64,000 nucleotides of DNA from Vicinamibacteria bacterium (GTDB taxonomy: Bacteria > Acidobacteriota > Vicinamibacteria > Vicinamibacterales > UBA8438): assembly GCA_022820825.1 (NCBI GenBank), contig JAJEEU010000080.1, forward strand, positions 9,211 to 73,210, in the 5' to 3' direction. Of this stretch, positions 26,542 through 32,975 are shown piece after piece. Position numbers and translations under genes: made by a program. Below the pieces are notes generated by a model. It did no database searches. It saw only the letters and a list, made by a program, of their open reading frames with translations, and was not told the origin of the DNA. Position 1 is the stretch's first letter. Each line of letters starts with the position of its first letter.

Positions 26542-28272
26542 ATGACCTGGACCCGATTTGCCTGCGTGCTGCTGTCCGCGGCGGCGCTCGCGGTCTCGCC
26601 TGCGCTCGCCGGCGCGGCCGAGTTCCACCACGTGCACGTGACCACGTCCAGCCCCGCCAAGGGGGTGGAGTGGTACTCGGAGCACCTGGGGTGCCAACCG
26701 CTCGCCGACCGCGATGACGCGGCCAACTGCGACGGCGTGGAGCTGGTCTTCGTACCCCAGCCGACCAGTGGCGGCAGCCAGGGCACCGGTGTCAACCATA
26801 TCGGCTTTTCCGTGGCGGACCTCGACGCCAAGATGGCGGAGCTCGAAGCCATCGGCGTGGGCGGCGCCGGAGTCCGGCTGCAGCGGAACGACGACGGATC
26901 GATAATCCGCGACATCCCCGGACTGTTCAAGATCGCCTTCATCTTCGATCCGTGGGGCACGCGGATCGAGCTGGTCGAGGACGAGGACTATCTCGGCTTT
27001 CACCACGTGCATCTGAGCGCGACGGATCCCGAGGAGACGCTGGCGTTCTACCGCGACGTGATGGGCGGCGAGCCGGCCTCCATGCGCGGCATGCTCGACG
27101 GCCTGCTGTTCGACGACGTCTGGCTGCTGGCCATGCAGCACCCCGAGGGCACGACGCCGACCGGCACCCAGGGGCGGGCGATCGACCACATCGCGTTCAT
27201 GGTGGACGATCTGGGCGCCGAGGCGCCTGCGCTGCGGCAGGCGGGCGTGCGGTTCCAGGAAGAGCCGGGCGTGCCGCAGAACGCGCGCACGCAGGCGCAG
27301 CGGGCGTTCGTGATCGGGCCCGACAACGTGCGGCTGGCGGTTGTCGAGGCGGGCTTCGCCGGCGTGGCGCTCGACCTCGCGCCCGTGGCTTCAACCGACT
27401 TCGGGCCGTACGACGTGCCCCGCACCTCGTGGGGCGAGCCGGACCTGCAGGGCGTCTGGACGAGCAACGCGTCGCACGGCATTCCGCTGGAACGCCCGGA
27501 GGGCGTGGAATCCGAGGAGTTGACGCCCGAGGAGGCCGTGGCGCGCCGGGAGGGCGGCACGCTCGGCGGCATCTGGGGCTACGATCGCGAGTGGCGGGAC
27601 ACGGCGCTCGGCTTCGGTGGTGCGACCGTGTCGACGCAGGTGCAGATGGTCGTCGATCCGCCGGACGGCCGCATTCCGCCGCTGACCCCGGAAGGGGAGG
27701 AATACGCGGCGCGGGTCATGGCCGCGCAGCGCCGCTACGCCACCCAGCCGTCGGGCGGCCCCGAGGACCTGAACCCCTACGTGCGCTGCATCACCCGTGG
27801 GATGCCGGGGATGATGTTCCCGATCGGCTACAACAACGGCTTGCAGATCGTGCAGGGGCCGGGCTACGTGGCGATCACGAAGGAAATGATCCACGAGACG
27901 CGGATCATCCCGACCGAGCCGCAGCCCGCGGCCGGGGACGATCTCAAGCTGTGGCTGGGCGTGCCGCAGGGGCGCTGGGAAGGCGACACCCTGGTCGTCA
28001 CGACCACCAACTTCAACGGCCGGTCGTCCTATCGCGGATCGACCGAGAACATGGTCCTGACGGAGCGCTACGAGCGCGTCGGGCCGACCGCGATGATGTA
28101 CTCGTTCACCATCGACGATCCGCAGATCTGGACCCGCCCGTGGTCCGTGCAGTTCCGCTTCGACAAGGACGACGAGCAGTACGAGCTCGTCGAGTACGCC
28201 TGCCACGAAGGGAACTACGGGATGACGAACATCCTGGCCGGCTCGCGCGTCCGGGAGGCGGGCAGCCGCTAG
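26542..28272 (+). CDS. secreted tandem VOC/glyoxalase-domain protein fused to an uncharacterised RTxWGxPDLQG domain
   Basis: signal peptide; FHHVH / HIGF / DPWG.RIEL and FHHVH / IDHIAF / GPDNV VOC pairs; C-terminal RCI...YACHEGN domain. Confidence 0.8.
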   Translation: MTWTRFACVLLSAAALAVSPALAGAAEFHHVHVTTSSPAKGVEWYSEHLGCQPLADRDDAANCDGVELVFVPQPTSGGSQGTGVNHIGFSVADLDAKMAELEAIGVGGAGVRLQRNDDGSIIRDIPGLFKIAFIFDPWGTRIELVEDEDYLGFHHVHLSATDPEETLAFYRDVMGGEPASMRGMLDGLLFDDVWLLAMQHPEGTTPTGTQGRAIDHIAFMVDDLGAEAPALRQAGVRFQEEPGVPQNARTQAQRAFVIGPDNVRLAVVEAGFAGVALDLAPVASTDFGPYDVPRTSWGEPDLQGVWTSNASHGIPLERPEGVESEELTPEEAVARREGGTLGGIWGYDREWRDTALGFGGATVSTQVQMVVDPPDGRIPPLTPEGEEYAARVMAAQRRYATQPSGGPEDLNPYVRCITRGMPGMMFPIGYNNGLQIVQGPGYVAITKEMIHETRIIPTEPQPAAGDDLKLWLGVPQGRWEGDTLVVTTTNFNGRSSYRGSTENMVLTERYERVGPTAMMYSFTIDDPQIWTRPWSVQFRFDKDDEQYELVEYACHEGNYGMTNILAGSRVREAGSR

Positions 28273-30536
28273 CGGAAAGCCGTGCCGGGCGTGGTCCCGG
28301 CGATGAACGCTTCCTGAATCGCTCCGCGGGTCCACGGCTCGGTGACACGGCCGGTCTGCGGGTCTACCGAGGCGAAGACGATATTCGAGGGCGGGACGAA
28401 CCCGGCGGGCGACTGCCCGCGCCGCTGATCGATGTGCGCCTGCATGAAGTCGCGCCAGATGGGCAGCGCGACGCGGGCGCCTTCCTCGCCGTGGCCCAGC
28501 GTGCGCTTCTCATCGTGGCCGACCCACACGCCCACGGTAATCTCCGGGTCGAAGCCGACGAACCACGCGTCGGTGTACTCGTCCATGGTGCCCGTCTTGC
28601 CGCCCACCGGCCACTCGAGGCGCCGCGCGCCCCTGCCGGTGCCGCGTTCGACGACGCCGCGCATCAGTGAAACCATGATGTAGGCGGTGTCGGCGCGGAT
28701 GGCGTCGCGCGGGACCGGCCGGTTCTCCTCCAGCACGGCGCCTTCGCGGTCGACGATCCGCTCGATCTGGTACGGCACCATCCGCACGCCGCCGTTGGGG
28801 AAGGCGGAGTACGCGCTCGTCACCTCCTGCAGCGTCGCTTCCGCCGCGCCCAGAGCGACCGACAGGTACGGCGGGATCGGTGAGGTGAAGCCGAGCCGGC
28901 GGGCGAAGTCGACGACCACCTCGGGCCCCACCGCGTTCATCAGCCACACAGAGGGGACGTTGCGTGAGCGCTCGAGCGCGTACCGCAGCGTGATCGGTCC
29001 CTTGTATTCGTTGTCGTAGTTGGTCGGCCGGTACCGAGGCTGGTTCGGACCGACCTCGTAGCTGACCGGCTCGTCCTGCACGATCGACGTGGTCGTGTAG
29101 CCCTGGTCGATGGCGGCCGCGAACAGCACGCCCTTGAACAGCGAGCCGAGCTGCCGGTACGCCTGTGTGGCCCGGTTGAACTTGCTGCGGTCGAAGCTGT
29201 AGCCGCCCACCATGGCGAGCACCCGGCCGCTGCGGTTGTCGATGGCGATGAGCGACGCTTCGGTCTCCGGCTCCTGCTCGAGCGTCACGCCGGCAGCGCC
29301 GCTCTCGCGGTCCAGTTGCGCGATGCGGATCTCGATCAGGTCGCCGGCCTTGACCAGCGCCGGCGGCGAACGGCGGGTCCACGCGTAGCCGTCCGGTCCG
29401 ATGCTCGCGGTGTAGGCGCCGAAACGTACCCCGATGGCGTTGCTGTCGACTCCCGTCACGACCGCCGGCACGATGTCGCCGGCGTCCATGGACAGCCGCC
29501 AGCGGGCATGCTCGAACTCGTCGATGCGACCGCCTGCGGCAAGAACGTTGCGCGCCGCCGGCCGGAAGCCGTGGCGCTTGTCGAGCCGCCTGAGGCCTTC
29601 CGCGACCGCCCGGTTCGCCGCTCGCTGCAGTCCGGCGTCGAGCGTGGTCTGGACGACCAGGCCGTCCTCGTAGAGGCGCTGTGCCCCGTACTCGGCCTCC
29701 AGGTGCTGCCGCACCTCCTCGATGAAGTACGGCGCGATCGAGTTGGCGCGCTCGACGCGCGGCGCCAGGCGGATCGGCAGGCGGCTCGCCTCGTCGGCCT
29801 CATCCTGCGTGATGTAGCCTTCTTCGGCCATGCGCCTGAGCGTGTAGTTGCGCCGCACGAGGGCCTGCTCCGGGTTCACCAGCGGACTGTGGCGCGAAGG
29901 CGACTGGAGGATGCCGGCAATCAGCGCCGCCTCCTCGAGCTCCAGGTCTCCCACGGGCTTGCCGAAGTAGAGCCGGGACGCCGCCTCGAGGCCGTGGGCG
30001 GCGTGGGCCGCCGTCCCCATCCATATCTGGTTGCAGTAGAGCGTGAAGATCTCCCGCTTCGTGTACCGCTTCTCGATGTGAATCGTGTAGTACGCCTCGA
30101 GCAGCTTGCGCTGCCAGGTCTTCTCCAGGCCGAGCTGCTGCCCTCCCAGCGTGATGTTCCGGGCGAGCTGCATGGTCAGGGTGCTGGCGCCGGCTGCGGT
30201 CAGGTCGCCCGAGAGGACGTTGGTGACGAGCGTGACGAGCAGGCGCGGGACGTTGAACCCGACGTGATCGAAGAAGTCGGCGTCCTCCGCCGCCACGACC
30301 GCGTGACGCAACACCTCGGGGATGTCGTCGTATTCCACGATGACGCGGCGCTGCGTGGCGAATTCCCCGATCAGCTCGCCGTTGCGGTCGTTGACGCGGG
30401 TAATGGTCTCGGGGGCGTAGTCGTCCAGCTCGGTGATGATCGGCAGGTCGGACGCATAGGCGAACAGGACTCCGCTCGCCGCGCCCAGCACCGCCCCGAG
30501 CACGACGACGCCGATGATCAACGGATGCCGGAGCAT
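28269..30536 (-). CDS. mrcA: class A penicillin-binding protein 1A
   Basis: AAEDADFFDH, GASTLTMQL, RKLLE (transglycosylase); SLFK, SRN, KTG (transpeptidase). Confidence 0.93.
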   Translation of the reverse strand: MLRHPLIIGVVVLGAVLGAASGVLFAYASDLPIITELDDYAPETITRVNDRNGELIGEFATQRRVIVEYDDIPEVLRHAVVAAEDADFFDHVGFNVPRLLVTLVTNVLSGDLTAAGASTLTMQLARNITLGGQQLGLEKTWQRKLLEAYYTIHIEKRYTKREIFTLYCNQIWMGTAAHAAHGLEAASRLYFGKPVGDLELEEAALIAGILQSPSRHSPLVNPEQALVRRNYTLRRMAEEGYITQDEADEASRLPIRLAPRVERANSIAPYFIEEVRQHLEAEYGAQRLYEDGLVVQTTLDAGLQRAANRAVAEGLRRLDKRHGFRPAARNVLAAGGRIDEFEHARWRLSMDAGDIVPAVVTGVDSNAIGVRFGAYTASIGPDGYAWTRRSPPALVKAGDLIEIRIAQLDRESGAAGVTLEQEPETEASLIAIDNRSGRVLAMVGGYSFDRSKFNRATQAYRQLGSLFKGVLFAAAIDQGYTTTSIVQDEPVSYEVGPNQPRYRPTNYDNEYKGPITLRYALERSRNVPSVWLMNAVGPEVVVDFARRLGFTSPIPPYLSVALGAAEATLQEVTSAYSAFPNGGVRMVPYQIERIVDREGAVLEENRPVPRDAIRADTAYIMVSLMRGVVERGTGRGARRLEWPVGGKTGTMDEYTDAWFVGFDPEITVGVWVGHDEKRTLGHGEEGARVALPIWRDFMQAHIDQRRGQSPAGFVPPSNIVFASVDPQTGRVTEPWTRGAIQEAFIAGTTPGTAFR

Positions 30537-30544
30537 TATTTACT

Positions 30545-30666
30545 TGGGGCTTACGCCCCAAACCCCCGCCGGCCACTCGCGGGGACCCCTGCGCCCCACT
30601 CCGTGGCCGGCGGGCCGCGCTGTGCGCGGCCTGGGGACGGCCGCCTTCCATGCTCGCCGTCCCCTC
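30545..30666 (-). repeat. ~120-nt multi-hairpin element, copy 1 (PBP1A leader)
   Basis: diverged inverted copy of 30923-31042 with compensatory base changes. Confidence 0.9.
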
Positions 30667-30831
30667 TATCGATCAACCGCCAGGGCACGCGTTGCACCCG
30701 GAGCGCCGCGCCTGCCGGGCCGCGGGCGACACGTGCTTGTCTAGTGTATCGGAAGCTGGAAGGGTGAGCATGATCATGCACCCGCGACCCGTGGGTTCGC
30801 CCCCGGACCCTTCCAACCGGCTGATAGCATG

Positions 30832-30861
30832 ATTGACATGAATAAACTCATATTTTATACT
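30832..30861 (+). promoter_or_regulatory. sigma70 dnaK promoter overlapped by a HAIR-like HspR operator
   Basis: TTGACA(30833)-17 nt-TATACT(30856); ATTGACA-N7-ACTCATA versus HAIR consensus CTTGAGT-N7-ACTCAAG. Confidence 0.7.
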
Positions 30862-30887
30862 CGCGGCTACATTAGGTTGTGACTCCG

Positions 30888-30919
30888 CACGTAGCGGTGG
30901 AATCACGTAACGGTGGAAT
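30888..30919 (+). repeat. 16-bp tandem duplication CACGTARCGGTGGAAT x2
   Basis: two adjacent copies, one mismatch. Confidence 0.85.
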
Positions 30920-30922
30920 ACG

Positions 30923-31042
30923 GAGGGGACGGCGAGCCGCAGGGCGGCCGTCCCCAAGCCGCGCACGGCGCGGCTCGGCAGGCGCGGCGCGGGGCTACGG
31001 GGTCCCCGCTAGCGCCTGCCGGGGGTTTGGGGCGCAGCCCCA
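30923..31042 (+). repeat. ~120-nt multi-hairpin element, copy 2 (dnaK leader)
   Basis: diverged inverted copy of 30545-30666. Confidence 0.9.
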
Positions 31043-31061
31043 TCTAACGAGGTAACGCGTA

Positions 31062-32975
<1,914 letters not shown>

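Follow-up and report, generated by a model that had tools for sequence, protein, structure and literature searches.

In the window analysed here, a 64,000-nt stretch of a contig from a Vicinamibacteria bacterium (JAJEEU010000080.1), the divergently oriented genes for a class A penicillin-binding protein (PBP1A type) and for DnaK are each preceded, just before the start codon, by a copy of the same GC-rich element of about 120 nt, which is predicted to fold into several hairpins. The question raised by this locus is whether the two copies represent a leader RNA that controls the genes behind it, or two members of a dispersed repeat. A sequence-only reading of the window had offered both possibilities: a leader-targeting, non-autonomous element resembling repetitive extragenic palindromes (REPs) or miniature inverted-repeat transposable elements (MITEs), and an undescribed cis-acting RNA affecting translation initiation, mRNA stability or thermosensing. 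The former proved to be the better of the two, as both elements belong to a family of modular interspersed repeats that is present in high copy number, restricted to the lineage, dispersed in the genome and polymorphic between relatives. This part of the claim stands, while the REP-associated tyrosine transposase (RAYT), the terminal inverted repeats (TIRs) and the target-site duplications (TSDs) that would be expected of such elements were not found.

The description of the pair itself was largely borne out. The two copies, A upstream of the PBP1A gene and B upstream of dnaK, both lie in the sense orientation of the gene that each precedes and share 84% mean column identity when aligned with their flanks. 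Both are predicted to fold into four consecutive hairpins (-91.0 kcal/mol, z -6.99 for copy A; -95.4 kcal/mol, z -4.89 for copy B), and 0 of 200 dinucleotide shuffles fold as well as either copy. The 10-bp stem, in which four positions had been reported to be changed on both arms with pairing retained, shows exactly this pattern. The identity of the flanking genes is supported by their Pfam domains (Transgly and Transpeptidase in PBP1A, HSP70 in DnaK), and the ATG of the PBP1A gene follows a tail without a motif resembling a Shine-Dalgarno (SD) sequence, as had been noted. The elements do end close to the ATG codons, but the distances, given earlier as 8 and 19 nt, are 9 and 20 nt when counted from the 3'-most base of the terminal hairpin. 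In agreement with the earlier failure to match the element to an RNA family, an Rfam scan of positions 30000-31600 returned six matches at E<=10, the best of which, at 21.2 bits, falls well below the gathering score of 58.

A high-copy family of modular four-hairpin repeats

The window's own assembly (4.23 Mb in 108 contigs, 94% complete, 69.5% GC) contains many further copies. An initial DNA search yielded 46 scored matches among 279 first-look candidates, and iterated nhmmer searches converged at 118 matches, 60 on the plus and 58 on the minus strand. A genome scan with a covariance model (CM), which had been suggested as a check, was run with a model of 82 copies and gave 111 matches at E<=1e-3, so that the pair before PBP1A and dnaK represents two members of a family of about 118 copies. 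About 68 matches are full length (116-nt core). A short form without hairpin 1, in which the match begins at model positions 10-35, accounts for about 45 more, a few others are end fragments, and no match in this genome exceeds 116 nt. Contig ends fall in copies at G000:C84:20-135, G000:C96:20-135, G000:C36:57-172 and G000:C86:6-61, and the copies at the start of C84 and C96 agree in both offset and score. Assembly breaks are therefore a probable consequence of the family, and its true copy number is probably higher than the count.

The full unit consists of a 5' extension of about 18 nt, four GC-rich hairpins (116 nt) and an AU-rich tail of 7-8 nt that contains TAA. The extension is moderately conserved, with a consensus of about AACGGTGAAGTACGGAAG, and the tail follows the consensus A-W-S-T-A-A-C (114 copies), most commonly as ATCTAAC or AAGTAAC; the consensus (T)AAC is present at both element junctions. 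An additional 5' module of 60-100 nt is common to 17 of the 63 full copies, and units occur singly, nested or in tandem arrays. At two loci of relatives (L145 and L153), a further 5' module of about 60 nt, beginning with TTTCTCACCAGCGTTCGTCGCGA, is joined to short-form units, pointing to more mosaic blocks than were modelled. The ATG after the tail was considered as a part of the element, an idea that was dropped since the frequent ATGCC/AAGCC-GCGCAGCCCC is the start of a following, internally deleted short unit. By eye, the reading frame is shifted between copies by loop indels and a TAG lies within the commonest stem-3 allele, and a conserved small open reading frame (ORF) through the element is unlikely. 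Behind two copies (G000:C101:28620-28734 and G000:C69:70042-70106), the tail is followed within about 10 nt by the apparent 3' end of an opposite-strand tRNA gene, with a GGTTCGAATCC-like T-arm in reverse complement.

The structure was analysed in an alignment of 82 distinct full-length copies, to which this genome contributed 31 and its relatives 51. The relatives' loci had been fetched via the 3' 22-mer, and conservation of that end among them is therefore given by construction. In a four-hairpin model with 37 pairs, 95.6% of the cells are paired, compared to 89.4% in shuffles, and both-side changes are seen in 13 of the 37 pairs. Cells changed on both sides number 206 versus 76 in shuffles, a value reached by none of 500 shuffles. 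The covariation score of 0.189 also exceeds that of the shuffles (0.088; 0 of 500 reach the observed score) and of slid registers (<=0.051), which supports the earlier proposal that the structure is under selection. This covariation is found mostly in the 10-bp stem 3, for which at least eight fully complementary alleles exist, together with a few chimeric copies that combine the 5' arm of one allele with the 3' arm of another. As stem 3 is present as block alleles, the independent covariation events number about eight and not 206; the covariation is real but is carried by these blocks.

RNAalifold favours an alternative, in which CCCC of the hairpin 1 3' arm pairs with GGGG after hairpin 3 and closes a multiloop, and the short form could use this fold. 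Conservation is highest in stems rather than in loops or junctions, and no conserved unpaired core resembling a ligand pocket is seen in the alignment. Hairpin 4 has a G-N-A loop in which the middle base varies freely (GCA 86, GAA 14, GTA 8), and this GNA-loop terminal hairpin presumably corresponds to the very stable d(GCGNAGC) DNA mini-hairpin. A CGTC tetranucleotide is located inside the 3' arm of hairpin 1 and not as a terminal tag, and the unit contains no conserved GTAG.

Distribution, placement and turnover

Matches at E<=1e-3 are present in 26 of 41 related genomes, this one included, and in 12 of the 13 genomes of the genus; the copy-free congener (G006) is a complete genome. A class-wide sample, searched with stricter filters, gave matches in 5 of 121 genomes, all from three families of the same order, and 0 of 80 genomes of families f21-f26 (presumably other orders) match. 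In an exact-pattern scan, the carriers among the matches listed are Vicinamibacterales or Vicinamibacteraceae metagenome-assembled genomes (MAGs). Judged from these searches, the family appears to be patchy across the order Vicinamibacterales and restricted to this lineage. Three relatives contain tandem arrays with periods of about 94 and about 161 nt (G010:C10:689944-690592, G003:C1:2987443-2988046 and G012:C1:2316055-2316495), which consist of seven short-form units at a period of ~94 nt or of full units at ~161-162 nt.

The exact 3' 22-mer (31020-31041), comprising a G5T3 linker and the GNA-loop hairpin, also occurs in other lineages. Its carriers among the matches listed include Candidatus Viridilinea (three contigs), Roseiflexaceae MAGs (three hits), Holophaga foetida, two Streptomyces, one of which has it as a tandem repeat of ~109 nt, and a Hominenteromicrobium MAG, in which it lies just after a tRNA; no exact match was found in viral contigs. 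At these non-family loci (L104, L114, L116, L123, L130, L138, L161, L162, L165 and L167), the flanks are otherwise unrelated and the similarity is confined to model positions ~82-116. A rough chance expectation for the 22-mer is about one match in all high-GC DNA.

Placement was classified for the 110 copies with both neighbours called. Between co-directional genes, 40 copies are in sense and 13 in antisense orientation (binomial p=2.7e-4; 38 versus 13 by distinct spacer), while 36 copies lie between divergent and 21 between convergent genes. Spacer types are used roughly as their lengths would predict, convergent spacers being somewhat over-represented. The proposed targeting of leaders holds for the 76 of 110 copies that point at a downstream same-strand gene, but not for the remaining 34, which face the 3' end of a gene on the opposite strand. 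The two ends of the element differ in their surroundings: within 12 nt of the 3' end, 25 of the 118 copies have a same-strand start and 18 an opposite-strand stop (any gene boundary in 43), and a called start lies within 35 nt downstream of 46 sense copies, whereas no 5' end is found within 30 nt of a divergent start (0 of 118). This polarity is replicated by 126 copies at the relatives' loci, with 54 in sense versus 26 in antisense orientation and a start within 35 nt of the 3' end in 26 copies versus 3 for the 5' end. Replication-strand bias was rejected as a cause of the orientation, since by GC skew the sense strand coincides with the G-rich strand in 52 of 103 copies.

The search for empty alleles, also suggested for the pair, started from 77 solitary copies in relatives. 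Syntenic flanks exist in this genome for 52 of them, of which 13 are filled and 39 empty. In a clean case, hisH and hisF are coupled here by a 2-nt stop-start junction (G000:C52:9436-9463), while in a relative (L108) they are split by a composite copy of ~270 nt, followed by ATCTAGCA-ATG; in a second clean case, the insertion lies 0-4 nt before an ATG. The tuf-rpsJ spacer contains a copy in a relative (L172) and only a hairpin-2 remnant here (G000:C44:95-229). At the orthologous site of a bcp-like gene, the hairpin-1 loop is identical in three species, each of which has a different stem-3 allele; in the closest relative this site is empty with the SD sequence retained. Thus, copies are gained, lost, internally deleted and recombined between close species, and exchange between copies takes place.

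The family works like REPs and bacterial interspersed mosaic elements (BIMEs), BOX elements, enterobacterial repetitive intergenic consensus (ERIC) or Correia elements, and mycobacterial interspersed repetitive units (MIRUs), yet it lacks the traits that define REPs (RAYT, size) and MITEs (TIR, TSD). Di Nocera et al. (2013, PMC3733652) describe REPs as located mainly downstream of genes, and the REP/BIME elements of Enterobacteria and Pseudomonas (GTAG and CGTC superfamilies) resemble the family in being extragenic, high-copy, GC-rich hairpin palindromes that are co-transcribed, clustered or mosaic, and strain-variable; the CGTC REPs likewise appear there without a dedicated transposase. The extragenic, high-copy character typical of REPs is reflected in 118 copies, only 9 of which share more than 30 nt with a called gene. 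In contrast to REPs, which are single imperfect palindromes of 20-40 nt with a terminal GTAG/CGTC tag, each unit comprises four hairpins in a fixed order (116-140 nt) and lies preferentially 5' of genes, in sense orientation; a Y1 transposase was not found in the genus.

MITEs such as the Correia/NEMIS elements of Neisseria and ERIC, also called intergenic repeat units (IRUs), are non-autonomous, transcribed intergenic repeats of 100-150 nt with orientation-dependent effects on mRNA. They contain terminal inverted repeats, a target-site duplication (TA) and one long hairpin, whereas the present family has four independent hairpins and no detectable TIR or TSD. The BOX elements of Streptococcus pneumoniae, which are composed of boxA, boxB and boxC modules, exist in about 100 copies, form a multi-hairpin RNA, frequently occupy 5' untranslated regions (UTRs) and are of obscure mobilisation. 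The likeness extends to modularity, copy number, multiple hairpins and 5'-UTR placement but not to sequence, and while BOX varies in the number of boxB repeats, this family varies by loss of hairpin 1, by extra 5' modules and by stem-3 allele swaps. MIRUs fill the intercistronic spacers of operons in a GC-rich genome, are oriented with transcription, abut stop and start codons and vary in tandem number; the sense excess between co-directional genes and the 43 copies ending at a gene boundary are similar features. Supply and colleagues reportedly described MIRUs in 1997 as short direct repeats that carry ORFs and show little dyad symmetry, whereas the present units are dominated by hairpins. 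A description of the family was not found in the full-text literature on Vicinamibacter or Acidobacteria repeats, nor with the hairpin-4 string and its reverse complement, in a corpus that covers subscription journals thinly. It seems secure that these interspersed repeats form a new family that is confined to the order, is built from modules with several hairpins, turns over rapidly and exchanges sequence among its copies.

The region between the PBP1A and dnaK genes

The features of the locus are given in Table 1. The dnaK promoter is the sole promoter-like match in 30450-31150 and is located 64 nt 5' of hairpin 1 of copy B. With this predicted promoter upstream, copy B would therefore lie inside the dnaK 5' UTR. 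The promoter block is kept in front of dnaK in those relatives whose loci were compared (L040-L063); it comprises, within 30833-30875, the TTGACA -35 element and a near-invariant CTCATATTTTATA block that includes the -10 element, which hints at a conserved operator overlapping the dnaK -10. Of the public sequencing runs, 13 recorded as RNA contained only 5-8% of the sampled words. Four of these (contigs only) gave cover only on the conserved dnaK coding sequence of many organisms and essentially none on the element, and are uninformative on transcription.

Table 1. Positions of the two repeat copies and neighbouring features in the window
Feature	Position	Strand	Details
Class A penicillin-binding protein gene (PBP1A type)	28269..30536	-	ORF; Pfam Transgly 1.6e-52, Transpeptidase 7.6e-34
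Copy A tail, AAGTAAATA on minus strand	30537..30545	-	AU-rich, without SD-like motif; abuts ATG at 30536
Copy A core	30546..30664	-	Hairpin 4 30546-30559, hairpin 3 30567-30612, hairpin 2 30613-30631, hairpin 1 30633-30664 (plus-strand coordinates); nhmmer C68:39759-39872; CM C68:39756-39873, 102.6 bits
Copy A 5' extension, GGCGGTTGATCGATAGAG on minus strand	30665..30682	-	Moderately conserved family module; flank profile
Predicted dnaK promoter, TTGACA-17 nt-TATACT	30833..30861	+	Promoter scan, 11/12 matches
Copy B 5' extension, TAACGGTGGAATACGGA	30908..30924	+	Flank profile
Copy B core	30925..31041	+	Hairpin 1 30925-30955, hairpin 2 30958-30974, hairpin 3 30976-31021, G4T3 linker 31022-31028, hairpin 4 31029-31041; nhmmer C68:40137-40251; CM 111.1 bits
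Copy B hairpin 4, GGGGC-GCA-GCCCC with GNA triloop	31029-31041	+	
Copy B tail, ATCTAACG (in the tail table as ATCTAACGAGGTAACGCGTAATG)	31042..31061	+	Then SD-like GAGG 31049-31052 and spacer to ATG
dnaK gene	31062..32975	+	ORF, ATG at 31062; Pfam HSP70 7.1e-267

The occupancy of this region differs between relatives. The dnaK leader contains 2 and 2.5 copies in two other congeners, and a solo stem resembling hairpin 2 is present in that of eight more distant congeners. In the closest relative (96% identity in dnaK), the leader has only a remnant, in which the 5' arm of hairpin 2 is fused to the 3' arm of hairpin 4 and the tail. The same relative has no copy before PBP1A, and the first codons of PBP1A differ too: its frame (L041, G009) opens with eight extra codons, or starts at an in-frame TTG, while in the window (positions 30500-30545 compared) the homologous hexamer behind the tail reads ATG-CTC. 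The presence of the element coincides with an altered PBP1A N-terminus.

Explanations for the family and what it means

We hold it to be probable, with moderate confidence, that the family is a repeat of the REP/BIME/BOX/MIRU kind, i.e. non-autonomous selfish or near-neutral DNA that is co-transcribed with its neighbours and whose placement is filtered by selection on the transcript. Copies would spread via some trans-acting activity, combined with recombination or gene conversion between copies, and the hairpins would be kept because the element itself needs them in single-stranded form. Copies would then be co-transcribed with neighbouring genes, and selection on the transcript would filter their placement. 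The G-rich sense orientation may be tolerated in leaders and between cistrons because the hairpins are self-contained and the unpaired AU-rich tail keeps the start codon accessible, as proposed here, while the C-rich antisense orientation would survive mainly just after stop codons. As RNA, a sense copy would probably provide a generic stabilising, insulating leader or intercistronic structure and not a gene-specific switch. By analogy with what has been described for REP and BOX, such a generic role would be the most economical reading.

Several points weigh against this reading. Many of the sites counted as empty hold internally deleted remnants and so represent deletions, and an individual difference between species may be either a gain or a loss. 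PF01797 (Y1/RAYT) was not found in this genome, in a search whose positive controls responded in 6 of 14 reference genomes, nor in the 13 congeners, including the 12 that bear the repeat; the linked RAYT that the sequence-only reading had suggested looking for is thus absent from the genomes searched. Among 58 copies, no TIR was detected, the best ungapped match between termini being 10.0 of 30 nt versus 10.8 in shuffled sequences, and no TSD, as no k-mer of 3-8 nt is shared by a copy's own flanks above shuffled partners at any offset pair. With neither TIR nor TSD, the term mobile rests on presence/absence and one clear insertion. Gene conversion of whole stem-3 alleles inflates the cell counts of covariation. 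Moreover, the ratio of G-U to A-C mismatches is 216:45 overall but 48:45 without two fixed G.T columns and does not single out a folding strand; the tolerance of G-U on the sense strand only, as seen in the two copies, fails genome-wide. Gene boundaries stem from our own crude codon-bias caller (3434 genes, 90.5% coding), whose starts are approximate, and the selection account of polarity, involving Rho and translation access, is one that we infer.

It seems unlikely that the former repeat has been exapted as a mobile 5'-UTR or intercistronic cassette, the hairpins of which would protect the mRNA 5' end, while the GNA-loop hairpin and the TAA-containing AU-rich tail would provide an SD-independent initiation context. 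Consistent with such a portable leader, an SD-like 4-mer is found in none of the 25 tails that place a same-strand start within 12 nt, but in 11 of 21 tails of 13-35 nt. The genome, however, is apparently low in SD sequences anyway, with an SD-like 4-mer at 37% of called starts versus 18% of random positions, a comparison that is noisy owing to the crude start calls. The strong polarity towards starts in this genome and in relatives fits a leader function, as do the one to 2.5 copies in the dnaK leaders of three species and a start region that is predicted to be more open than in controls (unpaired probability from -10 to +13 of 0.49 for 22 abutted genes versus 0.40 for 150 controls, p=7.5e-4). 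Annotation of the nearest 20 of the 46 downstream genes revealed unrelated housekeeping genes, including those for serine hydroxymethyltransferase (glyA), aconitase, trigger factor, SelA, TrpE, KdtA, AcrB, EtfA, YchF and a Fur-type regulator; in five of these genes, Pfam domains begin at residue <=4, and their starts are therefore genuine. On the other hand, start-proximal copies are retained across species no better than others (5/15 versus 3/15 and 5/22), the closest relative has lost the dnaK and PBP1A copies except for the remnant, and 34 of 110 copies are directed towards the 3' end of a gene. The narrower claim, that a sense landing replaces the native SD region with a hairpin stack, the GNA-loop hairpin and the TAA tail, and that these suffice in this lineage for efficient SD-independent initiation and for 5'-end protection, is a shade more doubtful still.

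A dedicated cis-regulatory RNA family, acting as thermosensor, riboswitch or protein-binding leader on a regulon that includes dnaK, could draw on the sense copy in the predicted dnaK 5' UTR downstream of a conserved promoter, on the copy carried by the trigger factor gene and on the strong structural conservation. It is nevertheless very improbable, and this half of the sequence-only reading found little support: more than 100 copies precede unrelated housekeeping genes (the 20 downstream genes annotated give no regulon), tandem arrays and truncated forms occur, one third of the copies lie at gene 3' ends, three quarters of the orthologous sites (39/52) are empty, and the element has its highest conservation in stems, with neither a pocket-like unpaired core nor an Rfam match. 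Just as improbable is a role at the DNA level alone, with the copies serving as sites for nucleoid or topology proteins, as BIMEs do for gyrase and IHF, or as cruciform or mini-hairpin DNA. The absence of strand asymmetry in the G-U and A-C mismatches, the G-N-A triloop with its free middle base and the occurrence in all three kinds of spacer, roughly by spacer length, would agree with this, but the orientation tracks the direction of transcription and not the replication strand, which symmetric DNA binding does not predict, and a partner protein was not identified. A classical REP/REPIN system, in which a RAYT (Y1 HUH transposase) mobilises the repeat, is hardly tenable: the elements are palindromic, extragenic and of high copy number, with CGTC in the 3' arm of hairpin 1, yet besides the missing PF01797 in this genome and its congeners, no copy lies within 1.5 kb of any of the 12 Y1 loci fetched from other genera, units are roughly four times as large as a REP, and copies are not arranged as inverted doublets.

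If sense copies did replace native SD regions, the translation-initiation regions of dozens of core genes (glyA, acn, tig, trpE, selA, hisF, rpsJ, PBP1A) would have been reshaped by a selfish repeat, and the 22-nt 3' module, recurring in unrelated repeats of Chloroflexota, Streptomyces and Holophaga, would be a widely used functional or recognition module. The favoured REP/BIME/BOX/MIRU-like repeat carries a more general caution, namely that what looks like a pair of covarying leaders in a single window may belong to a repeat family, and that part of the covariation in such pairs then arises because transposition or gene conversion has spread whole alleles. The Vicinamibacterales, Acidobacteriota that are abundant in soil, have seen very little genetics, and more than 100 copies per genome in the leaders and intercistronic spacers of core genes constitute a source of assembly breaks and a marker of rapid genome micro-evolution. 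They also provide a natural experiment on translation start, in which a very stable hairpin, with no SD sequence, is placed 8-12 nt before the AUG.

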